A DNA stretch of 64,000 nucleotides from an uncultured bacterium (GTDB lineage: Bacteria; Planctomycetota; JAJSAM01; JAJVHW01), in contig CALKVK010000032.1 of assembly GCA_937996235.1 (NCBI GenBank), forward strand, positions 242,444 to 306,443, given 5' to 3'. The notes under the pieces were generated by a model that ran no database searches, was not told where the DNA came from, and saw only the letters and a program-made list of their open reading frames with translations. The stretch's first letter is position 1; each line of letters opens with the position of its first letter. The position numbers and the translations under genes were made by a program. Positions 1,354 through 63,390 of this stretch are shown one piece after another.

Positions 1354-1356
1354 CGC

Positions 1357-4318: not shown

Positions 4319-4442
4319 CCGAGCCCGCGCGCGCGACGGTGGGGCCGTCTCGGATCCCGCCGTCGCGCCGCGCGCGCGCACGTCCTCCCTCCGCCGGCGC
4401 TGCGTCGTGCCGGGCTGCGCCGCGCGGTAGTCTGCGCGCTGC

Positions 4443-8667: not shown

Positions 8668-8766
8668 CGCGCACATGCGCTGCCGCGTGCCGCGATCGCG
8701 CGCACCGATGTAACCGCGCGCCTCCTCGCGTGTCCCTGGGCGTGGGCGCCGCACGGTGCGCCCAGC

Positions 8767-31655: not shown

Positions 31656-33710
<2,055 letters not shown>

Positions 33711-33718
33711 GGCCGGGC

Positions 33719-34798: not shown

Positions 34799-36309
34799 CG
34801 CTGACGCCGGAGCTGGTCCGCTGCGCGCAGGAGGCCCACGACGCCGCCCTCGCGTTCGGCCTCGACTTCCCCGAGGTCGTGTTCGAACTCGTCGATCCCG
34901 ACGAGATGAACATGATCGCGGCGTACGGCGGCTTCCCCGTGCGCTACCCGCACTGGCGCTTCGGCATGGAGTACCGGCGCCTGCAGAAGAGCTACGAGTA
35001 CGGACTCGGGAAGATCTACGAGCTCGTCATCAACAACGACCCGTGCTACGCGTACCTGATGCGCACGAACACCGTGATGGAGCAGAAGCTCGTCATGGCG
35101 CACGTGTACGGCCACGCCGACTTCTTCCGCAACAACGCGTGGTTCGCGCCGACCGACCGCAAGATGATCGACGTGATGGCGAACCACGGCACGCGCGTAC
35201 GGCGCCACGTGGACCGCCAGGGCGCGGATCGGGTCGAGACCTTCCTCGACGCGTGCCTCTCGCTCGAGAACCTGATCGACCCCCTCGGCATGTACGTGCG
35301 CCGCGGCGACGGCGAGGAGCCGGCTCCGGAGCTCGACGAGGAGCGCCTCGCGGCGGGGCGCGTGCGACGCTTCCCTGTCGCCCACCCGTACATGGAGCCG
35401 TTCATCAACCCCAAGGCGGAGCTCGAGCGCGAGCAGAAGGAGATCGCGGAGCGGCTGCGCGAGCGGCGCCGCGTCCCGCCCGAGCCGACGCGCGACGTCC
35501 TCGCGTTCCTCCTGCGCCACGCGCCGCTCGCGGACTGGCAGGCCGACTGCCTCGACATCGTCCGCGAGGAGGCCTACTACTTCGCGCCGCAGGCGATGAC
35601 GAAGATCGTCAACGAGGGCTGGGCGTCGTTCGTCCACAGCCGCCTGATGACGACGAAGCTCGTCACCGGCGCGGAGATCGTGGACTACGCGGACAAGCAC
35701 GCCGCGACTCTGGCGACGCAGCCGGGCCGCATCAACCCGTACCGACTCGGCTTCGAGCTGCTCCGCGACATCGAGGAGCGCTGGAACTGCGGGCGCCACG
35801 GACGCGCGTGGGAGGAGTGCGGCGACGCGGAGGAGCGACGGCGCTGGGACACGGGCGCCGCCGACGGGCTGCGCAAGGTCTTCGAGGTGCGTCGCGTCCA
35901 CAACGACCAGACCTTCCTCGACGCGTTCCTGACCCCGGACTTCATCGACCGCCAGCGCCTCTACATCTACGGCCGCGATCCTCGGACCGGCGAGACCGTG
36001 ATCCTCGACCGCGACCCGGCGACCGTGAAGCCCAAGCTCCTGCAGCAGTTCACGAACATGGGGCAGCCGGTCATCGAGCTCGTCGACGCCAACCACCGCA
36101 ACCGCGGCGAGCTCTACCTCGTGCACCGCAGCGACGGCACCGACCTGCGCGAGGACTTCGCGCGGCAGACGCTGCGCGCGCTGCACACACTGTGGACGCG
36201 CCCCGTGCACATCGAGGTCGCCATCGAGGGCAAGGCCGTGCTCTGGAGCTTCGACGGCAAGGACGAGGGCACGCGCGATCTCGGCCGCGCCGCGGAGCTG
36301 GTGCACTGA
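34795..36309 (+). CDS. spoVR: SpoVR-family protein (YcgB homolog)
   Basis: 504 aa. ATG overlaps the yeaH-like stop (ATGA). The conserved triad prkA-yeaH-spoVR is known to occur as an operon. Confidence 0.85.
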   Translation: MTLTPELVRCAQEAHDAALAFGLDFPEVVFELVDPDEMNMIAAYGGFPVRYPHWRFGMEYRRLQKSYEYGLGKIYELVINNDPCYAYLMRTNTVMEQKLVMAHVYGHADFFRNNAWFAPTDRKMIDVMANHGTRVRRHVDRQGADRVETFLDACLSLENLIDPLGMYVRRGDGEEPAPELDEERLAAGRVRRFPVAHPYMEPFINPKAELEREQKEIAERLRERRRVPPEPTRDVLAFLLRHAPLADWQADCLDIVREEAYYFAPQAMTKIVNEGWASFVHSRLMTTKLVTGAEIVDYADKHAATLATQPGRINPYRLGFELLRDIEERWNCGRHGRAWEECGDAEERRRWDTGAADGLRKVFEVRRVHNDQTFLDAFLTPDFIDRQRLYIYGRDPRTGETVILDRDPATVKPKLLQQFTNMGQPVIELVDANHRNRGELYLVHRSDGTDLREDFARQTLRALHTLWTRPVHIEVAIEGKAVLWSFDGKDEGTRDLGRAAELVH

Positions 36310-37547: not shown

Positions 37548-37619
37548 GCCGGCGTAGCTCAATGGCAGAGCTCCTGTTTTGTAAACAGGAGGTTGGGGGT
37601 TCGAGTCCCCCCGCTGGCT
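37548..37619 (+). tRNA. tRNA-Thr (anticodon UGU)
   Basis: Hand-folded cloverleaf: acceptor GCCGGCG/CGCTGGC (one G-U), D-arm GCTC-AATGGCA-GAGC, anticodon arm CCTGT-TTTGTAA-ACAGG (UGU), T-arm GGGGG-TTCGAGT-CCCCC. CCA is not encoded. Confidence 0.8.
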
Positions 37620-37695
37620 CCGCCGGCTGCGGCCCGCCGCGCCGTTTCCCCTCGCGGGACCGGCGCGTCCGCTCTCTCGACGCACGCGATCCCGT

Positions 37696-37781
37696 GGGTG
37701 GTTGCCCGAGCGGCCAATGGGACCAGACTGTAAATCTGGCGGCTTATGCCTGCGGTGGTTCGAATCCACCACCACCCACCA
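37696..37781 (+). tRNA. tRNA-Tyr (anticodon GUA), type II with long variable arm, CCA encoded
   Basis: Acceptor GGGTGGT/ACCACCC, anticodon arm CCAGA-CTGTAAA-TCTGG, long variable arm, T-arm GGTGG-TTCGAAT-CCACC. The 5' part is very similar to E. coli tRNA-Tyr. Confidence 0.85.
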
Positions 37782-38019
37782 TCGCGCGTAAAGCGTTGAG
37801 ATAGAGCCTGTTACGCAGGTGCGCCTGCTGCGATTGGCCTCGAGATCGGACCCGAAACAGTCTCCCTGTGCGTTGCACTGAGCGGAACGGCATAGCCTCA
37901 AGCGGAACGCCGTAAGCTGACAGATAAGCTGACAGCGTGCAGGCGGCCGGGGGCGATCTGGGGGCGGCTGTCCGCCTGCGACACTGACAAGCGACGTGCC
38001 ACGCGCGCGCTGGCCGCAG

Positions 38020-38105
38020 TCCTCGCTCGCGAGTCGGCGTGCCGCGGCCTCCGTTGCCCCGAACTCGTCGGTGTCGTGGCCTGCTGCGCGCAGCGCGGAG
38101 GGGCG
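38020..38105 (-). pseudogene. Remnant homologous to the 3' end/last repeat of the STAND-repeat gene at 46754..50545
   Basis: 38030-38099 (gcgagtcggcgtgccgcggcctccgttgccccgaactcgtcggtgtcgtggcctgctgcgcgcagcgcgg) aligns with 46748-46817 (gcgagtcagcgtgcctctgcctccagcgccgtgatctcgtcggcgtcgtgacctgctgcgcgcagcgcgg). Confidence 0.55.
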
Positions 38106-38253
38106 CAGACGGGCGAGAGCCTCTTCGCGACATTCGAGTACGAGCTGATCGATCGCTTCGCGCTCGATCGACGCGCCGCGGAGCCCAGGGGCTTCGACGC
38201 CATCGCGGGCTTCTGCAACACGTGTCCGCGAACACCCCAGACTCCCCCTTGGT
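38039..38253 (+). pseudogene. 5' part of an interrupted IS66-family transposase fragment
   Basis: The frame ending ...GLLQHVSANTPDSPL joins, across the IS21 insertion, to LTDHAENAIR... at 40535. This reconstitutes the IS66 motif (DDPRVPLDNNAAERAIR-like). Only the C-terminal ~110 aa of the transposase survive. Confidence 0.5.
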
Positions 38254-38344
38254 GGACACCTACTCTCCCGCACCTGCCTGACGCGGAGAGCGGGAGCCAG
38301 GATCATGTCCCCCGACCGGGCACGGTGTCCGGAGGAAGGGACAG

Positions 38345-39622
38345 GTGCCGATGGCTCGCCGACTCCGCCCGGAGGACGTGGTGACGATGGGAGTCTTGGC
38401 AGACCGAGGGCAGAGCGCGCGGTCGATCGCGCGGCAGTTGGACGTGGACGAGTCGATGGTGCGGTACCCGCTGAGGCGGCGTGCCGAGGGCGCTGCGGAC
38501 GCGCGCCGCGGGCGGCAGGTGCACCGGGCGTCGGTGCATGCGGAGCTGATCGCGCGCTCGTGGCAGGAGCATGAGAGCGGCGCGCGCCCCCCGATCGTCC
38601 ACGAGCTCCACGACCTCTTGGTCGAGGGGCACGGCTACGGCGGGAGCTACCAGTCGGTGCGGCGCTACGTGCGGGCGCAATTCCCGGCTCCGCGGCGGCG
38701 GGCGTACCGGCGCGTGGAGACGGTGCCGGGGGCGCAGGCGCAGAGCGACTGGGGCGAGTACCCGCGGATCCGCATCCGGCGCCGGGAGGTGCCGCGCAGC
38801 CTCTTCGTGATGGTGCTGAGCCACAGCCGCTGGACGGCGGGCGTGTGGTCGCCGCGGAAGGACCTGGTCGCGTGGCTGACGGTGCACAACGAGGCGTTTC
38901 GTCGTCTGGACGGCATCCCGGCGGTGAACCGGATCGACAACGTGAAGACGGCGATCGTGCGCGGGGCGGGGGCGTGGGGTGTGATCCACCCGACGTTTCG
39001 CACGTACGCGCGCACGGTGGGCTTCCACGTGGACGCGTGCGCGCCGCGGGCGGCGAACGCCAAGGGCAAGACCGAGGCGAAGGTGCGCCTGTCGCGGCTC
39101 TTCGGCGAGCTGCGCACGATGGACTTCGAGTGCGACGAGCACCTGCAGCAGGTGACCGACGCGCGTCTGCGGCGCTGGTCGGAGCGGGCGATCTGCCCGG
39201 CGACGGGGCGGAGCGTGGCGGCGAGCTGGGAGGAGGAGAAGCGGCTCCTGCGGCCCTTGCCGCTGCTGCCCGAGCCGTTTGACATCGCGGTCACGCGGCC
39301 GGTGCGCCGCGACTGCACGGTGGCGTTTGAGGGCCGCAGCTACACGGTGCCGTTTGCGCACGTGGGTCGCGAGGTGGAGGTGCGCGGCTGCGCGGGCACG
39401 GTGCAGGTCGTCGCCGGCGGCGTGGTCGTCGTGCAGTACCCGCGCGCGACGGCCGCGCGGATCTTGATCGACACCCGCTGCTGCGAGGGGCAGGCGACCG
39501 ACCGGGTGCTGCCTCCGCTGCCGCTCGGCAGGATGGGCCGGCGGCTCGAGGAGATCCGGCAGCTGCCCGTCGAGGAGCGTCCGCTGGACCTCTACGGCGC
39601 TCTGGCGGAGGTGGCGCGATGA
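38345..39622 (+). CDS. istA: IS21-family transposase IstA
   Basis: 425 aa. N-terminal HTH, DDE catalytic core, typical IstA length. GTG start with an ATG at 38351. Confidence 0.85.
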   Translation: MPMARRLRPEDVVTMGVLADRGQSARSIARQLDVDESMVRYPLRRRAEGAADARRGRQVHRASVHAELIARSWQEHESGARPPIVHELHDLLVEGHGYGGSYQSVRRYVRAQFPAPRRRAYRRVETVPGAQAQSDWGEYPRIRIRRREVPRSLFVMVLSHSRWTAGVWSPRKDLVAWLTVHNEAFRRLDGIPAVNRIDNVKTAIVRGAGAWGVIHPTFRTYARTVGFHVDACAPRAANAKGKTEAKVRLSRLFGELRTMDFECDEHLQQVTDARLRRWSERAICPATGRSVAASWEEEKRLLRPLPLLPEPFDIAVTRPVRRDCTVAFEGRSYTVPFAHVGREVEVRGCAGTVQVVAGGVVVVQYPRATAARILIDTRCCEGQATDRVLPPLPLGRMGRRLEEIRQLPVEERPLDLYGALAEVAR

Positions 39623-40392
39623 GCGCCGCGAAGAAGGGCCGCGTGGACCCGGACGCGACACGTGCGCAGCTCGAGCAGCTGGGGCTCGGCTACGCCTCGG
39701 AATCGCTCTCCTCGCTGCTGCAGGTGGCGGTGAAGGACGAGCTGCCTGCGCACGGCTTCCTCGACCGGCTGCTGGAGGCCGAGATCGGCCAGCGCGAGGA
39801 GCGGCGGGTGAAGACGTCCTTGGGTCTCTCGGGTCTTCCGACCGGGCAGACGCTGGCCGACTTCGACTGGAACTCCCAGCCCGGGATCCAGAAGAGCCAG
39901 GTGGAGACGCTCGCGACGTGCGAGTGGATCCGAGAGCACGCGACGATGCTGATCCAGGGCCCGCCGGGGGTTAGCAAGACGCACCTGGCCGTGGGTCTGG
40001 GCGCCAAGGCGGTCGAGAACGGCTTCAGCGTGCTCTTCGTGCGGCTCGACGACCTGCTGCACCAGCTCAAGCGCGACGCCGACGTGCCGCCGCAGCGGCT
40101 GCGCCGCAAGAAGTACATGAACGTCGCGCTCCTGATCGTCGACGAGGTCGGCTTCCAGCCGATGGACCGCCACGAGGCGAGCCTCTTCTTCCGGATGGTC
40201 AGACACCGCTACGGGCGTGGCTCGATGCTGATCACGACGAACAAGGCGGTGAAGGACTGGGCCGAGATCCTGGCGGGCGAGGAGGTGATGACCGCGGCGC
40301 TGCTCGACCGGCTGCCGCATCGCTGTCACGTCATGAACATCAAGGGCCGCAGCTACCGGCTGCGGGACCTGGAGAGGCTGCTCAAGCAGTGA
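39619..40392 (+). CDS. istB: IS21-family helper ATPase IstB
   Basis: 257 aa. Walker A GPPGVSKTHLA, Walker B LLIVDEVG. Its start overlaps the istA stop (ATGA). Confidence 0.9.
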   Translation: MSAAKKGRVDPDATRAQLEQLGLGYASESLSSLLQVAVKDELPAHGFLDRLLEAEIGQREERRVKTSLGLSGLPTGQTLADFDWNSQPGIQKSQVETLATCEWIREHATMLIQGPPGVSKTHLAVGLGAKAVENGFSVLFVRLDDLLHQLKRDADVPPQRLRRKKYMNVALLIVDEVGFQPMDRHEASLFFRMVRHRYGRGSMLITTNKAVKDWAEILAGEEVMTAALLDRLPHRCHVMNIKGRSYRLRDLERLLKQ

Positions 40393-40534
40393 GTGTGGCC
40401 GCCGAGAAGCGGCTCCGGTCGGCCCTCCGGGCCTCCCTCCACCGCTTCCCGGCGGCCTCGAGGAGTCGGAACGAAGTCGAAGGCCGCAGGTGCGGGGAAG
40501 TAGGTGTACGCCTAGTGCGGGAATCTAGGTGTCC

Positions 40535-40778
40535 CTTGACAGATCACGCCGAGAACGCGATTCGCGCGGCCGCACTCGGCCGCAGGGACCGGCGGTTCGC
40601 GGGCGGCGACGAGGGCGGACGCCGCGCGGCGCTCTTCTACTCGATCATCGCCAGCTGCACGGCCGCCGGCGTCGAACCCTTCGCCTACATCGAAGGCGTG
40701 CTGGCACGCATCCAGCGGACGCCGCAGTCGCAGGTCCGCGAACTCACGCCGCGCCGCTGGCTCGCCGCGCGCGGCTGA
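40535..40778 (+). pseudogene. 3' part of the interrupted IS66-family transposase (C-terminal fragment)
   Basis: LTDHAENAIRAAALGRRDRRFAGGDEGGRRAALFYSIIASCTAAGVEPFAYIEGVLARIQRTPQSQVRELTPRRWL matches the conserved IS66 TnpC C-terminus (NNxAEN..R..ALGRKNWLFAGS..GG..AA..YSLI.T.K.N.V.P..YL..VL..I...P......ELLP..W). Confidence 0.7.
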
Positions 40779-40982
40779 ACCCGGCGATCGGGATCACCTC
40801 AGAGCTCCCGTGGCTCGCGCTGCCCGCGCGGAGGTGTGCTCGGCCGGCCGGATACGGCTCTCACACCGGGTGGAACGAATCACGGTGGGCGGAGCACGAC
40901 GCACCAGTTCGGCGAGTCGCTCCGCTGTTGTGGGTGTCGGTTTCGGTACGAGATCCCGACGGGTTCGCGGGGCGTGCCGTCA

Positions 40983-43298
40983 CTACGACTCGCCACCCAG
41001 CGCGTCAAATCGCACGAAGAACTCCTTGGCGCCCGACGTCACCCGGAAGTTCTCGGTCAGCGCGTCGGGAACGGGAACGAAGATGCGCCGCCTCGTAATG
41101 AGCGTCGTCGTCGGGACCGGACCGCCGCCGGCTCCGCTACCCGCTATCGGCTCTCGAAGTTGGATGTCGTAGTACACGCTCAGCCGACCGGACGTGTCCG
41201 TGAAGATGTAGATGACCCGGTGACCGCCCCAGACGATGCGAGTCGTGTGCGGGATTCTGAAGAAGTCGGAGTACTCCTTCATCGCCCTGTCGGACAGGCC
41301 GAGTAGCATCGAGAAATTGTTCAATTGGGGATAGCTCGCCGCTGTCGTGAGCAGCTTCATGTCCGACGACAGGTCGTCGCGGACGATCGGTGGAGCCGGG
41401 CCGAACTCTCCGCCCGGAGGGGCCTCCTGCTTCACTGGGGACGCCACCACATCGGGGATGACGTTCTCGACCGTTCCTACCTGTCGGCTGGAGACGCTCT
41501 GGCTCTGTCTTCGGACGCTGGTCCGTGCCGCCAGCATGAGTTCCTTGAGCGGCACAGCGCCAGCCAAGTAGTCGCCCAGGACTCCCTCCAGGTCGCCGCG
41601 CTCGTCCGCCTCGTACCGGTAGAGCTCGCGATTCCGTTGGAGGATCTTACGGAGCGCATCGACGCCTTGCCGCGTCGAGGAAGGCACGTGTTGCTGCACC
41701 GATGGGTAGATGTGAACCCGAACAAAGTCCTTGACGACGGGATGAAACACATCATACGCGGTATCGTAGCACTCCAGCAGGGGGCGGATCTGCGGACCTC
41801 CGCGCGAAAGGTAGATGCGAAGCCCGTCCGAGGTCCTCTCGGGGAGCACGGAGACGCCGTGCGAGATGTCTGCCAGCGCGAACTCCGCCTCGGGGATCAG
41901 GTAGTCCTCCCGCAGAACGGACGTGGCGCGGATGAGCACAGCCACCTCCGGGATCGATAGATCCGCGCCGTCGTAGCGACGCACCACCCTCGCGGAGTCC
42001 GGCACCTGTTCAAGCTTGAGCTGTGTTCGCAGGTATTCCAACTGAACGGTTCTGCGGGGGTTCGATTGAGCTGGAAGCACGAGGCAGAGTTCCTCGTTCG
42101 CAAACGTATTCAGGATGGTCGTATCTAGACCCAAGTAGTAGTGCGCCTTCCGAGAACCGATGTGCGAGAGGAGTTCGCTCAGCGGGACGTCAGTGTCCTC
42201 GGGCAGCACGCGCACGGTGATCCGTCCGACCAGATCCGGTCGGCGGTTGGCGTGCAGCCATTGCACGAACGCGGTGTTGCGGTCTGCAAGCTTGTGCGTT
42301 GCCAAGACCTCCGAGGCGGCTCGTTCGGCCAACCGGATGAAGCGCGCGACTTGGTCGATGCTCTCGCGGCTGAGTGCCTCGCGCCCCGCTGTCGGCTGCA
42401 GGAACGAGAGGTTAGCGATGCCGCCGAATTGAAAGGGACCCGATGCCGGGACCGGGGCAAGGCCGAAATTCGACCGGAGACCGTTGACTTGTCCACCGGA
42501 TTGAAGCAGCACAATCTCGCCATCGACCGGCGCGCCGGCAAGTAAGAGGCTGCGACCGTAGACGAGCACCTGTCCGTTGGCATCCACACGGACTTCGAAA
42601 GATCCTGCGCAACTACCATCCGACTCGTCGCGTGTCCCCGCGTCCGCGAACGTGCGATGGCCGATCGGAAGCACCGCCTCTGCGGTGCGCTGACTGATGA
42701 GCACACCGTTCACGGTCACCGGGACGCGCAGCAGATTCACGAACGGTCCGAGGTAGCCAATCGCCTGCTCAGTGGTCAGCAGGTTCTCGGCGTCAAGCGT
42801 TGCAGTCACTGTCGTCCCGGTATCACGGGACCGCGGCAGCCGGTCTAGGACTATGCACCGCTCGCCGATCTTCAAGGTGGCCCGGTCCGCCGCGCTCCGC
42901 AGCATCTCCGCCGCGCCCTCGGTGCGGGTCTCCACCACGAGTCGCGTGCAGACTCCGAAGTTGGCCATCGCGCCGATCCCGAACGTACCGACGACCCCCG
43001 CCTGCCGGGCTGCCTCGGAGTGCTTGCCACTGGAGCCGGCCTTCCAGAAGTGCGTCGACAGCACGTCCTCGGTCATGCCGATGCCGTTGTCCGTGATGGA
43101 GACCGTCCCATCTCGAATCTCGATCTCGATGTGCCCGCCCTCGGCCAGAACGCCATCGCGAGCGAACCGCATCCGGACGGCGTCGTAGGCATTCTGGAGA
43201 TTCTCCCGGAGCATCGCCAGAGGGGAGTCGTAGATCTCACGGGCGAGCACCCTCAACACGCGGGTCGTATCGACCTCGAAGATGAGACCGTCGGTCAT
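40983..43298 (-). CDS. HSP90-like GHKL ATPase-domain protein (HATPase_c_3 / HtpG-like N-domain; the remaining ~550 aa have no obvious domain)
   Basis: 771 aa. The N-terminus EVDTTRVLRVLAREIYDSPLAMLRENLQNAYDA parallels the HtpG N-terminus (..LYSNKEIFLRELISNASDA). Bergerat-fold motifs ITDNGIGMT and GTFGIGAMANFG (HSP90 GxFGxGFYS). Lower GC (~58-60%) than the core. Its start overlaps the stop of the upstream phosphoesterase gene by 4 nt. Confidence 0.7.
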   Translation of the reverse strand: MTDGLIFEVDTTRVLRVLAREIYDSPLAMLRENLQNAYDAVRMRFARDGVLAEGGHIEIEIRDGTVSITDNGIGMTEDVLSTHFWKAGSSGKHSEAARQAGVVGTFGIGAMANFGVCTRLVVETRTEGAAEMLRSAADRATLKIGERCIVLDRLPRSRDTGTTVTATLDAENLLTTEQAIGYLGPFVNLLRVPVTVNGVLISQRTAEAVLPIGHRTFADAGTRDESDGSCAGSFEVRVDANGQVLVYGRSLLLAGAPVDGEIVLLQSGGQVNGLRSNFGLAPVPASGPFQFGGIANLSFLQPTAGREALSRESIDQVARFIRLAERAASEVLATHKLADRNTAFVQWLHANRRPDLVGRITVRVLPEDTDVPLSELLSHIGSRKAHYYLGLDTTILNTFANEELCLVLPAQSNPRRTVQLEYLRTQLKLEQVPDSARVVRRYDGADLSIPEVAVLIRATSVLREDYLIPEAEFALADISHGVSVLPERTSDGLRIYLSRGGPQIRPLLECYDTAYDVFHPVVKDFVRVHIYPSVQQHVPSSTRQGVDALRKILQRNRELYRYEADERGDLEGVLGDYLAGAVPLKELMLAARTSVRRQSQSVSSRQVGTVENVIPDVVASPVKQEAPPGGEFGPAPPIVRDDLSSDMKLLTTAASYPQLNNFSMLLGLSDRAMKEYSDFFRIPHTTRIVWGGHRVIYIFTDTSGRLSVYYDIQLREPIAGSGAGGGPVPTTTLITRRRIFVPVPDALTENFRVTSGAKEFFVRFDALGGES

Positions 43299-44749
43299 CG
43301 CAGGAACCTCTCTCGCACCCGCCGCATCACCTCCCGCACGCTCGCGTCGTTGCTATCGCGAACCTCTGGCGTGTTGAGAAACGACGTCGCGAACTCCCGA
43401 GCGCCACCTTGAAGTATCACGTCTGCAACCACGACAGCCTCGCCAGCATTCTTCGGCGGCCAGAGCTTGGAGAATATCGCTGGACTATCGCCTAGTTCGC
43501 CGAGGGCCTTGAAGAGAAGTGGTCGGGCGAGGGGGTGCTTGCTGATGGCGTCTAGGCATCGTACGGCGTCCTCCCACTGTCCTGCTCCAATCAGTGCCTC
43601 TGCGCGCTCCAGCGCGAGTGCTGCGTCGAGCCGCTCGGGTCGGTGAGCGAGGGGCTCGCAGACGGGGAACTCAACGTGATCGGTGCCAGTGGCCACGATG
43701 TAGCCCGGTCCCCAGAGGGGCATCGCGGGCGGGAGATTCAACATCTGCCGCAGGTGGACGGTTGCGGTCAGAGCGTCCGGATCGATGGTTACAATGTTGT
43801 AGCTGCGAGGCGTACCGGGAGCGAGGTGACGCACGCCAGAGCAGAGTGTGCCAGAACTGACGACGCTGATCTTGCGGCCGCTTGGGCCGAGTCGGAACCG
43901 CTCGTCCACGCATTCCTGGCGGTGTTGGTGGCCATGGAACGCCAGCGACACACCGGAGTCGATCAGGAGTTGGAGGACGCTGGCGTCCATGTAGTCGTTG
44001 CTCGCAGGCGGGCCGAAGAGATTGTGATGCCATGCTGCTGCGGTCATCCACCCCGTTCGATGGGGGCGCCGCAACTCGCGGGTTCCTTGGGCGAGGCAGT
44101 CTGGGTGGATGGCCCCCGCGCGCCTGAGAAGATCGTTCTCGTGGCAGCTGTTGAGAACGAGAATGCAGAAGCGGAGGTCGGGGAAGTCGAAAACGTGGTA
44201 CTGGAGTGATGGGTCAAGTGGATACATCCGCTGCCCCAAGTAGAACCGTTGGTAGAACTCCGCGAACGCCTCGAAGCGCCTCTCATATGCCGCTTCGTTG
44301 GTGACCCTGAGGAAGGACATCTCGGTCCACGACCAGCGGAGTGACGTGTGCGGATACTGGTACTCGGCCGCGAGCCGACGTTTCTCGGCCGCCGTAGCGG
44401 GTGCATCGACCCTCGACATGCTCGCGAACGCAACGGCCGCGTCGACATCGTGGTTCCCTGGGAGGAGTACGATGCGCTCGCGATCTCCCGCGAAGAACGT
44501 GTCTGCGAGCCTCGCGAGGAACTCCTCCGCCTGCCCATACTGTCGGGCGACTTCCTGTGCCGGAGTCGCGGCCGTTGGGTCGGCTCCGAAGATCAGGTCC
44601 CCCGTGACCAAGCACAGGGAGGGTGCAGGAACGCCTTGATTCACATACTTGTTGCGGTCGCGCTCGAGAGACTCGATGAGCCACGTGTTGGGAAGCTCAT
44701 CGTCGTGGTCCCTGTGGAGATCGGATAGGTGGAGGATCGAGAAACTCAT
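43295..44749 (-). CDS. Calcineurin-like metallophosphoesterase with a C-terminal helical extension
   Basis: 485 aa from ATG at 44749. MPE motifs ILHLSDLH (motif I), GDLIF (II), GNHD (III) and GHQH (V). The ~130-aa C-terminus has TPR-like helices. The track ORF begins upstream at 44836. Confidence 0.7.
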   Translation of the reverse strand: MSFSILHLSDLHRDHDDELPNTWLIESLERDRNKYVNQGVPAPSLCLVTGDLIFGADPTAATPAQEVARQYGQAEEFLARLADTFFAGDRERIVLLPGNHDVDAAVAFASMSRVDAPATAAEKRRLAAEYQYPHTSLRWSWTEMSFLRVTNEAAYERRFEAFAEFYQRFYLGQRMYPLDPSLQYHVFDFPDLRFCILVLNSCHENDLLRRAGAIHPDCLAQGTRELRRPHRTGWMTAAAWHHNLFGPPASNDYMDASVLQLLIDSGVSLAFHGHQHRQECVDERFRLGPSGRKISVVSSGTLCSGVRHLAPGTPRSYNIVTIDPDALTATVHLRQMLNLPPAMPLWGPGYIVATGTDHVEFPVCEPLAHRPERLDAALALERAEALIGAGQWEDAVRCLDAISKHPLARPLLFKALGELGDSPAIFSKLWPPKNAGEAVVVADVILQGGAREFATSFLNTPEVRDSNDASVREVMRRVRERFLR

Positions 44750-45261
44750 GGCCGTCCTGTGTCGCGTCGGGCAGCAAGAATACCCGCTTGGGCAGCCGAC
44801 GCGCATCGGGATCTGCGCTCGAATTTCACATCGCATCCGGCGCCCTGCGCCCTTCGCGTCCCGACTCCTGGGAAGTCGCCGCCGGGGTGGCTTGCGCCTG
44901 CGCGTGCATCACCTCCGCTGACGCGGGCCGAGCTCCGGCCACACGGTCTTCCGTTCGGTCCTCCGGACTCTTTGCCGTTGCGCGACGGGGAGACTGGGGC
45001 GGTCGCCGTCAGTCCACGCCGAGGTGATGCGCATGCCGTGTGCGCGAGACTGGGACCCGCTGCGGCTCATCGAGGTTCGACGCCAGTGGGCGCGGACGCG
45101 CTTCGACGTGCCCGGCAGGCGTCCGGCTCCTGCGTCCGGTGCGCGTCGTCTCCTGCGGCGGTTCAGGGGCGCGAGCCAGAAGGAGAAGCCCACGGAAGCT
45201 AGCAGTGGCCAGAACCGCACGGCCGTCGTGCCTGCGGGGACGGTCCACGCCTCGGTGTGCG

Positions 45262-45269
45262 CCAACGAG
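45262..45269. repeat. Left target-site duplication CCAACGAG of the IS1595 element
   Basis: An identical 8-mer is found at 46313..46320 immediately outside the right IR. Confidence 0.75.
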
Positions 45270-46312
45270 CATGCTTCTCCGGTTGACGACCGTAGCCCCC
45301 ATCGGTAGCGTTCCGGCCGCATGCCGAAGCCGGGCTACCCTCGCAACATCGTGGAGTTCACGCGCGACTTCGCCACCGACGAGCAGTGCCTGGCCTACCT
45401 CGTCCGGTGCCGGTGGCCCGACGGGTTCCGCTGCCGGCGGTGCGGCGGCGAGAGGGCGTGGCCCCGACCCGATCGCAAGGCAATGCGGTGCGCGGGCTGC
45501 GATCTGATCACCACCGTCACGGCAGGCACGGCGATGCACCGCAGCCGCCTGCCGCTCAAGTCGTGGCTCTGGGCCGCGTACATGTTGGCGACGGACAAGC
45601 GGGGGCTCTCGGCGCTCGCACTGCAGCGGCAGCTCGGTCTCGGCCGCTACGAGACCGCGTACCAGATGCTCCAGAAGCTGCGCTCGGCGATGGTCGCGCC
45701 GAATCGCACGCGGCTCGCGGGCGTCGTCGAGGTCGACGAGACGCTGATCGGCGCTCCCTTTCGAGGCCGAAAGGAGCGCACGGCGGCCGACAAGGCCGTC
45801 GTCGTGGGCGCGGTCGAGGTGCTCCCGACCAAGAAGGGCACGCAGCCCGGCCGCATCCGGCTGCGCCACGTGCCGACGGCGGCGAAGCCGCGTCTGATGG
45901 CGTTCGTCAAGGAGTGCGTCGAGCCCAAGGCCCTCGTGATCACCGACGGCCACGAGACCTACGACGAACTCGAGAAGCTCGGCTACGAGCACGGGATCGA
46001 ATCCACCGCGACGGGCGAAGCGCAGGAGAACGTCCTGAGGCACCTGCACCTGGTCTTCTCCAACCTCAAGACGTGGCTCGACGGCACGCACCACGGCCGA
46101 GTCTCGAAGAAGCACCTGCAGCAGTACCTCGACGAGTTCACGTTTCGCTTCAACCGGCGGCACACGCCGCAGGCCGCGTTCCAGACGATCCTCGGCATCG
46201 CCGCGAAGACGCCGCCGCGCACGTACGAGCAGGTGTACGCAGGCGAGCCTGCCGAGCCGCTGCCCTTCTAGCACAAGGGGTTGGGGGTGCGGTCGTCAAC
46301 CGGAGAAGCATG
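45270..46312 (+). mobile_element. IS1595-family (ISXO2-like) insertion sequence, intact
   Basis: Perfect 24-bp terminal inverted repeats (left catgcttctccggttgacgaccg; right cggtcgtcaaccggagaagcatg), an 8-bp TSD typical of IS1595, and a single transposase gene. Total 1043 bp. Confidence 0.85.
45321..46271 (+). CDS. IS1595-family transposase (N-terminal zinc ribbon + DDE_Tnp_IS1595)
   Basis: 316 aa. CRRCGGERAW...CAGC zinc ribbon. The DDE domain with the C-terminal HxxxxxH/FRFNRR motif is characteristic of ISXO2-like transposases. Confidence 0.85.
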   Translation: MPKPGYPRNIVEFTRDFATDEQCLAYLVRCRWPDGFRCRRCGGERAWPRPDRKAMRCAGCDLITTVTAGTAMHRSRLPLKSWLWAAYMLATDKRGLSALALQRQLGLGRYETAYQMLQKLRSAMVAPNRTRLAGVVEVDETLIGAPFRGRKERTAADKAVVVGAVEVLPTKKGTQPGRIRLRHVPTAAKPRLMAFVKECVEPKALVITDGHETYDELEKLGYEHGIESTATGEAQENVLRHLHLVFSNLKTWLDGTHHGRVSKKHLQQYLDEFTFRFNRRHTPQAAFQTILGIAAKTPPRTYEQVYAGEPAEPLPF

Positions 46313-46320
46313 CCAACGAG
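46313..46320. repeat. Right target-site duplication CCAACGAG of the IS1595 element
   Basis: Matches 45262..45269. Confidence 0.75.
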
Positions 46321-46753
46321 CGCGTCGTGAACGGCGCTTCGTTCACGTCGTACGCCGTGCGCCTCAAGCGGTGGTATAGGGGCTACGACGGGACGTCGAA
46401 GTCCGCGAACTCATTCGGCGTGGGCGATGAAGCCGACGCGCTCCCGTGGACAGTGTGCGGCTCTCGTTCCGTCGACACGGATGCGGTCTGCAGCGATCCT
46501 CACGCCGCCTGGCTCGCCGCTCGCTCCGAGAGGGCGCCCCGGGTCTGGCTCCACCTCCGAGGTGCGGGAACCCGTGGCGCAGGGGATAGGTCGACGTGAA
46601 GGGAGCGAGCATACGGCTCGGATAACGGGACGTTGACAAGATGCGACGCGGTTGCGTCTCAGCGCAGGGGTAACGCGGGACGCCGGGCCATGAGCCGCGC
46701 AGGTGCGTGAGCCGTCCGAGTGCGCTAGTCACGGTGCAGTCGTTGCTTGCGAG

Positions 46754-49700
46754 TCAGCGTGCCTCTGCCTCCAGCGCCGTGATCTCGTCGGCGTCGTGAC
46801 CTGCTGCGCGCAGCGCGGCGATGCGGTCGGCGAGGCGAAGGCGGGCGGCTGGGTCGGGCTCGACGACGGTGGCGTTGAACAGCGCCTTGGCCTCGTTCAG
46901 CGCGACCTCGTCGGTGTCGTGGTCCGCTGCTCGCAACGCGGCGACGCGGTCGGCCAAGCGCAGGCACGCGGCGGGATCGGGCTCGACGACGGTGGCGTTG
47001 AACAGCGCCTTCGCCTCCTCGAGCGCGATCTCGTCGGTGTCGTGGCCTGCCGCTCGCAGCGCGGCGACGCGGTCGGCGAGGCGCAGGCGGGCGGCTGGGT
47101 CGGGCTCGTTGGCGGTGACGTTGATGAGCGCCTTCGCCTCCTGGAGCGCGATCTCGTCAGTGTCGTGACCTGCTGCGCGCAGCGCGGCGATGCGGTCGGC
47201 GAGGCGCAGACACGCGGCTCGGTCGGGCTCGACTACGGTGGCGTTGAACAGCGCCGTCGCTTCCTCGAGCGCGAGCTCGTCGGTGTCGTGGCCTGCTGCT
47301 CGCAGCACGGCGATGCGGTCGGCGAGGCGCAGGCACGCGGCGGGGTCGGGCTCGTTGGCGGTGGCGTTGAACAGCGCCTTGGCCTCGTTCAGCGCGACCT
47401 CGTCGGTGTCGTGGTCCGCTGCCCGCAGTGCGGCGATGCGGTCGGCGAGGCGAAGGCGGGCGGCTGGGTCGGGCTCGACGACGGTGGCGTTGAACAGCGC
47501 CTTGGCCTCGTTCAGCGCGACCTCGTCGGTGTCGTGGTCCGCTGCCCGCAGTGCGGCGATGCGGTCGGCGAGGCGAAGGCGGGCGGCTGGGTCGGGCTCG
47601 CCGACGGTGGCGTTGAACAACGCCTTCGCCTCGCGGAGCGCGATCTCGTCAGTGTCGCGACCTGCTGCCCGCAGCGCGGCGATGCGGTCGGTGAGGCGCA
47701 GACACGCGGCAGGGTCGGGCTCGACTACGGTGGCGTTGAACAGCGCCTTGGCCTCGTTTAGCGCGACCTCGTCGGTGTCGTGGCCTGCTGCGCGCAGCGC
47801 GGCGATGCGGTCCGCGAGGCGCACGCGGACGGCCGGGTCGGGCTCGACGACGGTGGCGTTGTTCAGGGCGTTCGCCTCCTGGAGCGCGACCTCGTCGGTG
47901 TCGTGGTCCGCTGCCCGCAGTGCGGCGATGCGGTCGGCGAGGCGAAGGCGGGCGGCTGGGTCGGGCTCGCCGACGGTGGCGTTGAACAACGCCTTCGCCT
48001 CCTCGAGCGCGATCTCTTCCGTGTCGTGGCCTGCTGCCCGCAGCGCGGCGATGCGGTCCGCGAGGCGCACGCGGACGGCCGGGTCGGGCTCGACGACGGT
48101 GGCGTTGTTCAGGGCGTTCGCCTCCTGGAGCGCGACCTCGTCGGTGTCGTGGTCCGCTGCCCGCAGTGCGGCGATGCGGTCGGCGAGGCGAAGGCGGGCG
48201 GCTGGGTCGGGCTCGCCGACGGTGGCGTTGAACAACGCCTTCGCCTCCTCGAGCGCGATCTCTTCCGTGTCGTGGCCTGCTGCCCGCAGCGCGGCGATGC
48301 GGTCGGCGAGGCGCATGCGGGCGGCCGGGTCGGGCTCGACGATCGTGGTGAAGCGTAGAGCCGCAGCGTGCCGGAGCGCACCGACCTGAGCATCGACATG
48401 CCGCCCGCAGTCCCGGACATGGTCGGCGAGTTCCTCGCGCAGGCTCTCCGCGCGAGAGCGGAGGGGCTCCTCGGTGACGAGGTGCGTGATCGACCAGATG
48501 AGCGGCAGCGCCGACAGCGCGAACGGCGCAAGGGCCCTGATCGGATCGTCGTGGAAGCGACCCTGCCACGAGAGCCGCGTGCTGGCGACGCCCGGCGGAT
48601 GGAGGGACTCGCGGACGATGTGGACGCGTAGGCCGTCCGGCCGCATCACGAAGAGCCCAGGCTCACCTTCGTTCGCACGTTCGTGGGCGAGGAAGCGCAC
48701 TTCACTCAGTTGCCACGCTACGTCGCGCAGATCCGGAGGAAGTGCCTCCGGCTCCGCGTGTCCCACATACGCCAGGATGCGGAGCACGCGGAGGCGTTGG
48801 CCGTCGAGGTCGGCGCCCGCTGCCGACCTCGCAACCCGCTCGATCGCTCTCGAGTACGAATTCGCCAGGAGCTCAGCAGAAGTCTGTGGGATCGGCACGC
48901 CGGGCTGTAGGGCCAGCGCAAGACCGCGCAACGCAGCCTCGAAGTGTCCCTCGGAGGCCAGGGCCACGGCAGCCAACGCGTCGTTGCGCCGCAGCGCAGC
49001 GGCGGCGCGAGGACTGGCGGCGGCGATGCGTCGCAGATACTCCGCAACGGAGCCGGGATCATGTACCGGCTCGAACGCGAACTCGGAGTACCGCTCGCGC
49101 TGATGCCGACGCTCTCCGAGCACGTCGTGTGTCGGCCAGGTGGTCACCAGGCATCGCAGCGCGAAGTCGCCTTCCCAAGTCCACGGCAGGTCGAGAAACG
49201 CGCCCATGCGCTCAGGCTGCGAGCCCTTGTAGTCGTCCCACACGACGAGGCAGCGGAAAGACGCGCCGGAGTGCCCGCGTGGCCCGCTCGCTCGGAGCCG
49301 GTGGAGAGACGCCATCGCGGCGTCGGTGAACGAGTTGTCGCCTGCCGTGACGAACAGGACGTGCCACCCCTCGCCGCGTGCCAGGTCCGCGGCGGCGAGC
49401 GCGAACCGCGTCTTGCCGGTGCCGGGCGGGCCGCGCCACACGTGCACGCGGATCTTGTCCTCCGCGAGCAGCCCTCGGACCTTCTCGAGTTCTCCGTGGC
49501 GCCCGAGGAACGTCTCCTGCAGCGCGCTCGCTGTCGATGCCTCGGCCCACAGATCGTCGAGTCCGTAGTCGTACGTGCGAGCGATGCTCCAGTAGCGACT
49601 GGCGAACGTGGCGAGCGGCTCCAGGCGCGAACCGTAGAGCCCCCGCAGCGTCTCGGCGATCTCCAGGAGGCGCTCGTCGATGCGCGCGAGCCGGCCCACC

Positions 49701-50545
49701 AGTTCCGCATGGTGCTCCGAGAGCTGATCGCGGAGTTGGGCAACCGACTCCTCGATCGACAACTGCAGCTGGTGCTCTGCTGCCCAGATCTGACGGATCT
49801 GCGAGTCGTTCAACTCTCCCAGCAGCGCCTTGACCCGATCGGTATCCGCCTCGTGACCTGCGCGAAGAGCCTGGAGCGTGGCGAGAACGGCCCCCTGGAA
49901 GCGCAGGGTGAGCGCCGCATAAGCACGGCCTTCTGCGGGGCCCTCGCCGTTCACGTCGCGCTTCAGCAACTCGACGACCGCGCTCTGGAACGGCTCGGTC
50001 AACCGGTGCGCGGCCGCCGTGATGGACGCGTCGTCGTGCGGCGTGCCGCACGCTTGCAGCAGGGTGGCGACGGTCTCCCCCAACTCGGGTGCTGCGCTGC
50101 GGGCGTTGGGCCCGTGCAGCCCCGTCAGCATCCCGAGGATCTCGCCGTCAGCGACGACCGGAAGCTCCGTCGGCTGCTCCGATCTCAGTTCCCTCTCGAC
50201 CGCGGCACGGAGGTCCTCGAGCAGCTTCCGTCGCGCCGTGCTTCCTGAGCGGGTGCGCCCCAGATCTCGTTCGGCCGCCGTGTCGAGTGCGTGCAGCGCG
50301 AGCACCTCGAGGTCGTGGTTGCGGAGGAGAGCCCCAGCTGTCGGCCGCGCGCGCTGCTTGCGCCCCTCGATCAGCTTCGTGAACTGGTCGACGCCGATCT
50401 CGATGCCGGCCGCACCGAGGGCCGCGAGGAGGATCTGCGGCATCGGCCCCGCGAGCGTCGCGAGGGCAGGCGCGACGAACGAGAGGCTGGAAACGGCCGC
50501 GAGCACAGCCACCTTCGACACTGCGGCGGGGGTGTTGCCGGGCAC
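46754..50545 (-). CDS. Large STAND/NLR-like P-loop NTPase: N-terminal hydrophobic segment, helical region, AAA+/NACHT-like NTPase, C-terminal array of ~13 near-identical 41-aa repeats
   Basis: 1263 aa. The N-terminus MPGNTPAAVSKVAVLAAVSSLSFVAPALATLAGPMPQILLAALGAAGIEIGV is a predicted TM segment. Walker A is VWRGPPGTGKTRFAL (~aa 395) and Walker B is FRCLVVWDDYKG. The repeats EPDPAARLRLADRIAALRAA(G/D)HDTDEVAL(N/Q)EAKALFNATVV are encoded by 123-bp DNA units. Confidence 0.7.
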   Translation of the reverse strand: MPGNTPAAVSKVAVLAAVSSLSFVAPALATLAGPMPQILLAALGAAGIEIGVDQFTKLIEGRKQRARPTAGALLRNHDLEVLALHALDTAAERDLGRTRSGSTARRKLLEDLRAAVERELRSEQPTELPVVADGEILGMLTGLHGPNARSAAPELGETVATLLQACGTPHDDASITAAAHRLTEPFQSAVVELLKRDVNGEGPAEGRAYAALTLRFQGAVLATLQALRAGHEADTDRVKALLGELNDSQIRQIWAAEHQLQLSIEESVAQLRDQLSEHHAELVGRLARIDERLLEIAETLRGLYGSRLEPLATFASRYWSIARTYDYGLDDLWAEASTASALQETFLGRHGELEKVRGLLAEDKIRVHVWRGPPGTGKTRFALAAADLARGEGWHVLFVTAGDNSFTDAAMASLHRLRASGPRGHSGASFRCLVVWDDYKGSQPERMGAFLDLPWTWEGDFALRCLVTTWPTHDVLGERRHQRERYSEFAFEPVHDPGSVAEYLRRIAAASPRAAAALRRNDALAAVALASEGHFEAALRGLALALQPGVPIPQTSAELLANSYSRAIERVARSAAGADLDGQRLRVLRILAYVGHAEPEALPPDLRDVAWQLSEVRFLAHERANEGEPGLFVMRPDGLRVHIVRESLHPPGVASTRLSWQGRFHDDPIRALAPFALSALPLIWSITHLVTEEPLRSRAESLREELADHVRDCGRHVDAQVGALRHAAALRFTTIVEPDPAARMRLADRIAALRAAGHDTEEIALEEAKALFNATVGEPDPAARLRLADRIAALRAADHDTDEVALQEANALNNATVVEPDPAVRVRLADRIAALRAAGHDTEEIALEEAKALFNATVGEPDPAARLRLADRIAALRAADHDTDEVALQEANALNNATVVEPDPAVRVRLADRIAALRAAGHDTDEVALNEAKALFNATVVEPDPAACLRLTDRIAALRAAGRDTDEIALREAKALFNATVGEPDPAARLRLADRIAALRAADHDTDEVALNEAKALFNATVVEPDPAARLRLADRIAALRAADHDTDEVALNEAKALFNATANEPDPAACLRLADRIAVLRAAGHDTDELALEEATALFNATVVEPDRAACLRLADRIAALRAAGHDTDEIALQEAKALINVTANEPDPAARLRLADRVAALRAAGHDTDEIALEEAKALFNATVVEPDPAACLRLADRVAALRAADHDTDEVALNEAKALFNATVVEPDPAARLRLADRIAALRAAGHDADEITALEAEAR
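46757..48340 (-). repeat. Tandem array of ~13 x 123-bp near-identical coding repeats (41-aa units), including a perfect 246-bp two-unit tandem duplication (~47785-48030 and ~48031-48276)
   Basis: The period was measured between recurring ctcgtcggtgtcgtg motifs (46786, 46909, 47032...). The +strand ORFs across this region (46703..47761, 47190..48389) are artefacts of the repeat. Confidence 0.85.
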
Positions 50546-58510: not shown

Positions 58511-58833
58511 GGCACGGCGAGGGGCGGGACGGCGACCACGAAGCGCGCCCGTCGGATCCGCCAGTCGTCGGGTGGCGCAGCCCGCCCGAGCCGCGGATGG
58601 CGGCGACGCGCGATCCACGCACACAGCCAGCAACGCGCCCTTCAGCGCCGGCTGTGTGGGGCCGTCGATGCGGCCCGATGTTCGGCGCCGCTCGCCGGCT
58701 CCGAGGTGCTACCTCGCCAGGCCACCCACAAGGTCCGATACGCCGTGCCTCGATGTGCTCGCCGCTCCGAACGCTGCGCTCCCCCGAACTCCGGTACCCA
58801 GGAGGCAGGGCCGTCAGATAGCCTCGAGCGGCG

Positions 58834-63176: not shown

Positions 63177-63390
63177 TGGCGAGGCAGGTGCTTACGGCTG
63201 CAGTGTCAGCCGCGTCAGCGAGCGGTCGTGACGACGCTGCCGTAACTCCCTCTCTGGGCAACAGCTTGAGTTCCATCACCATCACTACCCCTACGGGGGA
63301 ACAGCGGTGACGCAGCTGTCCCCCTCGGGTAGCTCGCGCCGAACCGAGACGGACGCCGCGACGAGGCGTCGCCGGCAGGGGGCGCGGCCA

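Follow-up and report, generated by a model that had tools for sequence, protein, structure and literature searches.

The window analysed here is a 64,000-nt stretch of contig CALKVK010000032.1 (positions 242,444 to 306,443) from an uncultured bacterium of the Planctomycetota (GCA_937996235.1), in which two adjacent minus-strand genes encode a calcineurin-like metallophosphoesterase (MPE) and a full-length HSP90-like protein, referred to below as the ATPase (Table 1). This pair is a conserved, self-contained and horizontally mobile module. We consider it probable, at odds of about two in three, that the two genes make up a mobile immune module directed against phages or other mobile elements, with the MPE as effector and the ATPase as sensor or switch. 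Any single step of the mechanism proposed below is clearly less certain than this reading as a whole.

Organisation of the operon

A translationally coupled two-gene operon is supported by the arrangement of the coding sequences, which share four nucleotides in an ATGA start/stop overlap; the sequence ctgcgATGAccgac holds both the ATPase start and the MPE stop within this overlap. AGGA, a Shine-Dalgarno-like sequence, sits 7-10 nt ahead of the MPE ATG, and the MPE reading frame is still open upstream of that ATG, as far as 44836. Both products (771 aa and 484 aa) are contained exactly in a public protein collection, from one contig of 317 kb. A simple scan of positions 40300-45400 found no sigma-70-like promoter, such a scan possibly not suiting a high-GC host, and returned only chance-level terminator candidates in the same interval. 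The composition of the pair differs from that of its surroundings, with a GC content of 0.63-0.64 versus 0.69-0.78 in the adjoining DNA and 0.68-0.76 in the flanking core and insertion sequence (IS) genes, and a GC content at third codon positions of 0.75-0.79 versus 0.92-0.96; the window as a whole has a GC content of 0.71. A preliminary description of this locus, made from the sequence alone, had already reported the two overlapping minus-strand genes at these coordinates, the local drop in GC content and a mobile, defence-type context, all of which are upheld here, and had given the MPE as 485 aa where 484 aa is correct.

Conservation, distribution and mobility of the pair

Scanning one genome per species across 185,579 species gave 238 confirmed relatives (about 0.13% of species genomes), and 80 loci were fetched. 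These loci span more than 15 phyla, including the Alpha-, Beta- and Gammaproteobacteria, Desulfobacterota/Myxococcota, Acidobacteriota, Planctomycetota, Chloroflexota, Patescibacteria, Nitrospirota, Nitrospinota, NC10, Bacteroidota, Spirochaetota and Verrucomicrobiota, among others. Homologues of the ATPase number in the thousands, with a length of about 772 aa, and identity stays at 56-70% between unrelated phyla; their hosts include Methylophilaceae, Nitrotoga, Polyangiaceae, Clostridiaceae and Binataceae. Among 1.84 billion cluster representatives searched, 243 clusters were recovered at E <=1e-30 and 1221 at E <=1e-10.

The MPE gene lies directly upstream of the ATPase gene on the same strand in 78 of the 80 loci, as judged by tblastn with the window MPE. 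One exception (L048) is at a contig end with 465 nt of upstream DNA, in which a 130-aa stub still matches TPR_19; in the other (L058), an ISKra4 transposase is inserted upstream of the ATPase, and this locus was rejected as a case of an alternative effector since it represents disruption by an IS. Adjacency and orientation are thus kept in all 78 loci with intact upstream DNA, the test of neighbourhood that the preliminary description had proposed. The 4-nt ATGA overlap recurs in 53 of these 78 loci and the spacing is at most 9 nt in 75, while the identities of the two proteins to their window copies are correlated with r = 0.95 (66 loci), which shows that they have co-evolved. All-against-all clustering of the flanking open reading frames (ORFs) revealed no third conserved gene, the next families being present in no more than 7 of the 80 loci.

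The genes immediately adjoining the pair (n = 135) include phage-type integrases (7), relaxases (3) and resolvases/recombinases, restriction-modification (R-M) genes encoding type I methylase and specificity subunits, XhoI and Eco57I, and the defence-type genes TIR_2, Schlafen-AlbA2, AAA_15/AAA_21, PglW and mad2/mad3. The pair is also present on conjugative megaplasmids of P. aeruginosa (~450 kb), where an ABC-three-component system and an IS21 are its neighbours, and on a plasmid of Rhizobium; in RefSeq these plasmid-borne genes carry only the labels 'metallophosphoesterase' and 'ATP-binding protein'. On the P. aeruginosa plasmid pPUV-9 (L081, NZ_MT732187.1), the pair occupies 708-4359; an ABC-three component system of three genes lies some 3 kb away, and a gene for an MvaT/MvaU xenogeneic silencer is nearby. 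On the plasmid of Rhizobium sp. 007 (L082, NZ_CP064189.1), tblastn detects a full-length MPE at 7541-8995 (44% identity, aa 3-484), upstream of the ATPase, at which site the PLSDB gene table has small hypothetical ORFs only, reflecting either an annotation gap or a pseudogene.

The HSP90-like ATPase

The N-terminal domain of the ATPase carries a complete Bergerat signature, with the ExxxN, DxGxG, GxxGxG lid and GT motifs, and contains the segments E32-NLQNAYDA, ITD70NGIGMT and G104TFGIGAMANFG. Residues E32, N36, D70, G72, G74, G104, G107, G109, G161 and T162 are invariant in 65 ATPase sequences. The Pfam models HATPase_c_3 and HATPase_c both exceed their cut-offs, and in NCBIfam the protein matches the HSP90 family at 1.5e-23 and HtpG at 3.6e-12, versus 1e-8 for BbrUII and 1.7e-4 for MutL, with MzaB and Topo VI-B also scoring far below HSP90. 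Comparison of the family profile with PDB sequences identified the N-domains of GRP94, TRAP1 and HtpG (2.6e-16 to 4e-13, aa 7-207), and the best 60 matches listed are all HSP90-family N-domains. The HSP90-type assignment of this domain in the preliminary description is thereby confirmed, and the motifs quoted there for both proteins are all present and invariant or nearly so. The same description had found nothing recognisable in the ~550 aa that follow, which holds at the sequence level, neither NCBIfam nor the PDB profile search detecting similarity to HSP90 beyond aa 1-207; a structural model, on the other hand, suggests the fold of the HSP90 middle and C-terminal domains.

This model, computed with AlphaFold2 (AF2) from the 65-sequence alignment (pLDDT 81, pTM 0.56), retrieved full-length HSP90s only among its Foldseek top 50, with TRAP1 at E 3e-21 followed by HtpG, Hsp82/Hsp90 and GRP94, and with 8gae among the fold matches. 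The alignments extend over 620-680 columns with TM up to 0.56, and separate structural matches were obtained to the middle and C-terminal domains of HtpG. As modelled, the ATPase is HSP90-like over its whole length. By motif likeness, as distinct from superposition, the invariant PTAGREAL (R306, E307) resembles the catalytic-loop NLSRExLQ / SRE of HSP90 and may be its counterpart.

Because its scores are far below the HtpG/HSP90 cut-offs in NCBIfam (83 bits versus 455 and 45.6 bits versus 371), and because conserved synteny is lacking, the ATPase is not an HtpG orthologue. A housekeeping HtpG in core synteny, which the preliminary description had named among the findings that would overturn it, was rejected on the low scores, on flanks that differ at every locus and on the sporadic spread of the gene. 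Compared with the housekeeping HSP90s (HtpG, TRAP1, GRP94 and Hsp82), the ATPase appears in its model to have the same three-domain fold and has all ATP-binding motifs, but it is about 150 aa longer, sporadic and mobile, and has an obligate operon partner.

The metallophosphoesterase

The MPE contains the motifs D10-L-H12, G50-D51-L-I-F, G98-N-H-D101 and G273-H-Q-H276, and D10, H12, G50, D51, G98, N99, H100, D101, H241, H242, H272, G273 and H274 are invariant in 46 homologues, all five metal-binding motifs therefore being intact throughout. Pfam identifies the domain as Metallophos (PF00149, 2.2e-10), and no Calcineurin-CE model was matched in the Pfam scan. In NCBIfam, DS9_1_antiphage is matched at 5.9e-18, with aa 4-303 aligning to profile positions 195-474 (the C-terminal 280), and is the only family matched by all 46 members, no generic MPE family competing with it; DS8_antiphage matches 16 of the 46 (best 1.3e-5). 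On these profile matches the MPE domain appears to belong, at domain level, with the defensive phosphoesterases DS-9A and DS-8 of the Calcineurin-CE type.

The AF2 model of the MPE (pLDDT 88) is matched in Foldseek first by YydB (9a6c_B, 1.5e-16) and then by Lmo2642, Rv0805, SMPDL3A and purple acid phosphatases. YydB of B. subtilis is the best structural match to the whole MPE (481 versus 484 aa) and is likewise modelled in complex with a partner protein (the YydD-YydB complex, PDB 9a6c), but it shares only 13% identity and has no sequence-level match to the MPE; the MPE profile matched no PDB chain even at E up to 10. Mre11 ranks 15th (E 7e-5, TMq 0.24) and 28th, with TMq not above 0.29, and PP2A and calcineurin come no higher than 19th, with E values no better than 5e-4. 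Since the MPE is closest to DS-9A/DS-8 and to nucleotide phosphodiesterases, with Mre11 only at rank 15, a nucleotide target is likelier than a nuclease role. The preliminary description had left the effector as either a nuclease or a cyclic-nucleotide/nucleic-acid phosphodiesterase, the first of which is made less likely here. Some members are annotated at JGI as 'SbcCD nuclease subunit' and others as 'CpdA'. The all-helical tail of the MPE is TPR-like in the model and may serve as a docking module for the ATPase.

Exchange of partners among sister ATPases

Ten look-ups in the sister clade, mostly on contigs of 4-6 kb, showed that homologous ATPases are found with different upstream partners. 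Four ATPases of 750-773 aa (P0335, P0340, P0363 and P0377) lie downstream of Metallophos proteins of 585-592 aa, overlapping them by 4 nt (P0335 and P0363) or 8 nt (P0377) or separated by a 7-nt gap (P0340); for the one partner compared, L088 upstream of P0335, hhalign showed the MPE domain to be homologous (1.6e-7). An 813-aa ATPase (P0327) lies downstream of a 534-aa PRTase-CE protein (PF24390, 1.3e-21) and aligns end to end with the window ATPase (25% identity, E 6e-55), retaining TAGREAL and the C-terminal beta-rich domain. A further ATPase of 723 aa (P0388) has a 288-aa EAD11 protein about 800 nt upstream, and three more are downstream of TPR proteins: P0387 (726 aa), with a weak HetE-N match after the ATPase and a 281-aa TPR partner, P0370 (726 aa), with a 267-aa partner ending in TPR, and P0386 (703 aa), with a 495-aa partner also ending in TPR. 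In total, the partners of four sister ATPases have a C-terminal TPR.

As homologous ATPases are paired with different partners, the ATPase is the constant component and the upstream protein the variable one, the latter usually ending in a TPR or TPR-like module. A constant ATPase with a variable partner is the signature of systems composed of a sensor or switch plus an effector, and the division of roles suggested in the preliminary description, ATPase as sensor or regulator and phosphoesterase as effector, fits this pattern. In conflict systems, phosphoesterases of the calcineurin superfamily recur as variable effectors (PMC7159879).

Comparison with known systems

Model libraries searched for related systems were PADLOC-DB 2.0.0 (2023), NCBIfam 20.0 (2026) and Pfam. 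Neither protein has a full-length match to any PADLOC-DB 2.0.0 or NCBIfam 20.0 model, and PADLOC gave partial N-terminal matches only, the ATPase matching REase_II, MzaB and TmtA and the MPE matching PDC-S60 and a model called 'Effector', without naming a system. Nicastro, Burroughs, Iyer and Aravind (NAR 2023;51:11479) reportedly predicted, by computation, immune systems with HSP90-related modules coupled to Calcineurin-CE, HD-CE and PRTase-CE effectors, in which modules related to HSP90 and HSP70 are reported to be analogous to STAND and GTPase domains. Such systems would share with the window pair an HSP90 paralog beside a calcineurin-like conflict effector in a mobile, defence-island-like context. 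The window family likewise combines an HSP90 paralog with a conflict effector in one operon, with effectors exchanged among homologous ATPases, and its PRTase-CE and EAD11 partners, which came to light independently of that study, are in line with the prediction. The pair has neither a name nor a model in PADLOC 2023 or NCBIfam 2026. It is therefore accurately described as an instance of a computationally predicted kind; 'uncharacterised' is right, whereas 'undescribed', the term used in the preliminary description, is too strong, even though no library model or searched paper names the pair.

Among validated systems, DS-8 and DS-9 of E. coli both require the catalytic residues of their metallophosphatase for defence (DefensePredictor, PMC13092281). 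DS-9 is a PUA-Calcineurin-CE plus HAD system, in which Calcineurin-CE, a family name originating with Nicastro et al. 2023, turns dNDP into dNMP and can cleave NAD+, depleting deoxynucleoside triphosphates (dNTPs) (Zhang et al. preprint, PMC12871103). The window pair resembles DS-9 in having an MPE of the same clade in a two-gene operon, but it has no PUA sensor domain (the MPE starts at motif I, and its model contains no extra N-terminal domain) and no HAD or third gene conserved beside it, and it has instead a separate HSP90-like ATPase as putative sensor and a TPR-like tail on the MPE. Because it scores 65 bits where the DS9_1 equivalog cut-off is 420, and has neither PUA nor HAD, the window MPE shares the effector domain of DS-9 while falling outside the DS-9 system. 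DS-8 is a metallophosphatase fused to a NACHT NTPase (PMC13092281). Here the likeness is an MPE effector under an NTP-driven switch, together with the weak matches to the DS8 model, and the difference is that a P-loop STAND module is fused in one polypeptide in DS-8, whereas the window pair has a separate ATPase of the GHKL/HSP90 type.

A partial parallel exists in eukaryotes, where PP5 combines TPR with a calcineurin-like phosphatase and is activated on HSP90. The window pair similarly joins an HSP90-type ATPase to a partner with a metallophosphoesterase fold and a TPR-like domain, a likeness that is one of analogy only: the TPR is N-terminal in PP5 but C-terminal in the window MPE, the MPE falls outside the PPP family, and the ATPase has no MEEVD tail.

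Proposed mechanism

The pair is most likely a nucleotide-degrading abortive-infection module, for which we infer complex formation, trigger, substrate and phenotype as follows. Coupling through ATGA would cause both proteins to be made in a fixed ratio and to form a complex, in which the TPR-like tail of the effector would dock on the HSP90-like dimer, probably on its C-terminal part, and the effector would be kept latent in uninfected cells. An infection cue, for which a phage protein is the likeliest candidate given how chaperones recognise their clients, would be sensed by the HSP90-like clamp and would alter its ATPase cycle; the HSP90 paralog would thus act as an ATP-driven conformational switch and sensor, in the role that STAND NTPases have elsewhere. 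The phosphoesterase, once freed or activated, would hydrolyse free nucleotides (dNTP/dNDP, NAD+ or a nucleotide signal), and the loss of nucleotides would halt phage replication via abortive infection.

A broader and more tentative proposal, to which we give well under an even chance, is that the family applies the HSP90-TPR co-chaperone principle to bacterial immunity. In such a scheme MPE, PRTase-CE and EAD- or HetE-type effectors would all be tethered by a C-terminal TPR to a dedicated HSP90 paralog, held by it as latent clients and released or activated when a phage protein engages the clamp.

Several observations weigh against the immune reading or parts of it. The fold assignments rest on AF2 models, that of the ATPase having a pTM of 0.56 and being disordered at aa 540-569, and the MPE tail has weak Pfam matches to TPR_19 and TPR_14 that are below thresholds. 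The DS9_1 score of the MPE is the low value given above, and no PADLOC or NCBIfam defence model reaches threshold for either protein. The sister-clade sample is small, and hhalign comparison of the sister TPR partners with the MPE family profile found no significant link to the MPE tail, so that the idea of a common TPR adaptor rests on domain position and not on homology. The census of neighbouring genes had no background control, making any enrichment qualitative only. No paper in the searched literature mentions the family or a defence pair of an HSP90-like protein with a phosphoesterase. The enzyme could equally act on a cyclic nucleotide or oligonucleotide, on a phosphoprotein or on the end of a nucleic acid. 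To these may be added the near-absence of the pair from phage and viral collections (0 matches in 50,697 phage genome records and 5 loci in 2.9 million IMG/VR viral contigs), which is uninformative as to targets and speaks neither way.

Alternative explanations

A restriction-like system in which a MORC/MutL-like GHKL DNA clamp directs an Mre11/SbcD-like nuclease to cut invading DNA is improbable. It draws on weak matches of the ATPase N-terminus to GHKL-containing type II restriction enzymes and MzaB (PADLOC REase_II 2.2e-6, NCBIfam BbrUII 1e-8), on the 'SbcCD nuclease subunit' label of some MPEs and on the presence of Mre11 among the fold matches. HSP90 nevertheless outscores these families both by sequence (1.5e-23 versus 1e-8) and by structure, and beyond the transducer it alone matches the ATPase, with the separate HtpG middle and C-terminal matches; Mre11 comes after the nucleotide phosphodiesterases, and the MPE family as a whole matches only DS9_1 and DS8 in NCBIfam. 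Clustering of the flanks of the 80 loci found no conserved methyltransferase, helicase, nuclease or SbcC/Rad50 (SMC-like) partner near the pair, and homologous ATPases have as partner not nucleases but PRTase-CE, an effector directed at nucleotides. Mre11/SbcD and MORC/paraMORC/MutL share superfamilies with the pair (calcineurin-like MPE and GHKL, respectively) but are more distant than the other families compared. An Mre11/SbcD-type nuclease system was therefore rejected on the ranks of Mre11 and the lack of a conserved SMC-like partner, and a MORC/paraMORC/MutL-type defence ATPase on the better sequence and structure matches to HSP90; the preliminary description, which had drawn its comparisons from these groups, was looking in the wrong neighbourhood.

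We attach equally little weight to a selfish addiction or inter-element competition module, toxin-antitoxin-like or acting by exclusion, that mainly stabilises or favours its carrier element instead of shielding the host from phage. The pair is always found in the mobilome, among IS elements, integrases, relaxases and conjugative megaplasmids, and unites tight gene coupling with one potentially toxic enzymatic activity, but R-M and defence neighbours are as frequent as mobility genes and the closest characterised relatives of the MPE are anti-phage. At the sequence level, addiction and abortive-infection defence are inseparable, and the two are mutually compatible, not exclusive.

More doubtful still is a CpdA-like regulatory phosphodiesterase of nucleotide signals whose stability or activity would be governed by a dedicated HSP90-like chaperone; it could shut down cyclic-nucleotide signalling, possibly to serve mobile elements as counter-defence against CBASS or Pycsar. 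Rv0805, Lmo2642 and SMPDL3A, which are structural neighbours of the MPE, act as phosphodiesterases on cyclic nucleotides or nucleotides, SMPDL3A degrades cGAMP (PMC13092281), and some members carry the 'CpdA' label; set against this are the phage and viral counts given above and the nature of the swapped partners, PRTase-CE, EAD11 and HetE-N being immune effector or adaptor domains and not signal quenchers. A proteostasis pair for stress response, consisting of an HtpG paralog and a PP5-like TPR protein phosphatase as co-chaperone, is very unlikely, for although the ATPase as modelled has a full-length HSP90 fold, the partner formally resembles PP5 in having a TPR-like domain besides a calcineurin-like phosphatase fold, and PP2A and calcineurin are among the weak MPE fold matches, the pair is sporadic, has wholly variable flanks and foreign composition, lies between IS elements and scores far under the HtpG/HSP90 family cut-offs, and PPP-type phosphatases rank no higher than 19th with PPP-specific motifs absent.

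Genomic context in the window

The features of the window are listed in Table 1. The IS21/IS66 and IS1595 flanks, tRNA-Tyr and type I R-M system noted in the preliminary description were all located. The order runs from PrkA, SpoVR and chorismate synthase through the tRNAs to IS21 with the adjoining C-terminal scrap of an IS66 (Pfam DDE_Tnp_IS66_C), which together bound the pair on one side, and then to the pair and IS1595; beyond IS1595 follow a 1263-aa P-loop NTPase, the type I R-M operon and a Toprim/AAA_25 protein. The window was searched for a repeat of the tRNA-Tyr 3' end that would delimit the island; none was found, and the far boundary of the island is therefore outside it. The presence of the primase/helicase-like Toprim/AAA_25 gene and of a gene for a helix-turn-helix (HTH) protein suggests that an integrative mobile element makes up the island downstream of tRNA-Thr/Tyr.

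Table 1 Features of the window
Feature	Position	Strand	Description
Operon
MPE gene (putative effector)	43295..44749	-	484 aa; ATG at 44749, TGA at 43295-43297
Catalytic MPE domain	43655..44749	-	aa 1-365; family-specific ~100-aa insert (aa 102-200) with conserved RWSW
TPR-like all-helical tail	43298..43654	-	aa 366-484; eight helices between aa 374 and 483 (model)
ATGA start/stop overlap	43295..43298	-	ATPase ATG 43298-43296, MPE TGA 43297-43295
ATPase gene (putative sensor/switch)	40983..43298	-	771 aa, full-length HSP90 paralog
Bergerat ATPase N-domain, HSP90-type	42684..43298	-	aa 1-205; Pfam HATPase_c_3; NCBIfam HSP90 family
ATPase middle region	41679..42683	-	aa 206-540; beta-rich, then alpha/beta segment; invariant PTAGREAL, R306 at 42381-42383
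ATPase C-terminal region	40986..41678	-	aa 541-771; low-confidence linker, then beta-rich domain
Upstream non-coding stretch	44750..45268	-	MPE start to IS1595 inverted repeat; presumed promoter region
Surroundings
888-aa ORF	33643-36309	+	SpoVR confined to C-terminal half (aa 390-858)
tRNA-Thr	37548-37621		
tRNA-Tyr	37696-37781		
90-nt copy	38016-38105		between tRNA-Tyr and IS21; 81% identical to 46736-46825
IS21 (istA/istB)	38248..40515	+	30-nt inverted repeats; Pfam rve/Mu-transpos_C_2, IstB_IS21
IS1595	45269..46313	+	31-nt inverted repeats, 94% complementary; DDE_Tnp_IS1595, Zn_ribbon_IS1595
1263-aa P-loop NTPase gene	46754-50545	-	repeat array at 46784-48342
Type I R-M operon	51197-58633		
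DUF4268 gene	54166-55104	-	between hsdR and hsdS
Toprim + AAA_25 protein	60954-63176	+	740 aa; primase/helicase-like
HTH protein	63333-63998	+	

The 1263-aa protein had been taken for a STAND NTPase. A P-loop NTPase region is indeed present, but the STAND label rests on weak P-loop matches only (AAA_30/ATPase_2, and RFC small subunit at 5e-5, aa 331-434), and PADLOC gave no match for this protein. Its last ~520 aa consist of 12.7 tandem copies of a 123-nt (41-aa) unit with 86% nucleotide identity, the repeat unit being EPDPAARLRLADRIAALRAAGHDTDEIALEEAKALFNATVV. Judged from this architecture, the protein looks like an NLR/STAND-type sensor with near-identical repeats. The 90-nt copy near tRNA-Tyr corresponds to the last repeat and stop region of this gene, so that related sequence stands on either side of the 8.6-kb block comprising IS21, the IS66 scrap, the pair and IS1595, which may be the trace of a rearrangement that delivered the pair. 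Elsewhere in the window, the DUF4268 gene within the type I R-M operon has a match in PADLOC to the candidate family PDC-S11 (5.9e-113). The true SpoVR gene probably starts later than the 888-aa ORF, the upstream part of which is likely a separate gene of the PrkA/SpoVR cluster.

Implications

The labels 'molecular chaperone HtpG', 'CpdA' and 'SbcD' are misleading as annotations for these genes. The family is compact, its two genes taking up about 3.8 kb, and conservation is high throughout the more than 15 phyla that have it; the pair occurs in tractable hosts including P. aeruginosa (on megaplasmids), P. fluorescens, Agrobacterium and Rhizobium, so that what an immune HSP90 recognises is directly testable. 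Targets for mutation are E32, D70 and R306 in the ATPase and D10/H12, N99/H100, H274 and the TPR tail in the MPE.

If the predicted immune function is correct, the pair would be an anti-phage system with a chaperone-type (HSP90/GHKL) ATPase as its sensor, a mode of sensing that is not known to be used by any characterised defence system, and its output would enlarge the class of nucleotide-depleting effectors. Should the co-chaperone principle also apply, a GHKL chaperone, in place of a P-loop STAND NTPase, would serve as the pattern-recognition switch, and the eukaryotic links of HSP90 with TPR proteins (PP5/Hop) and with NLRs would gain a prokaryotic immune counterpart.

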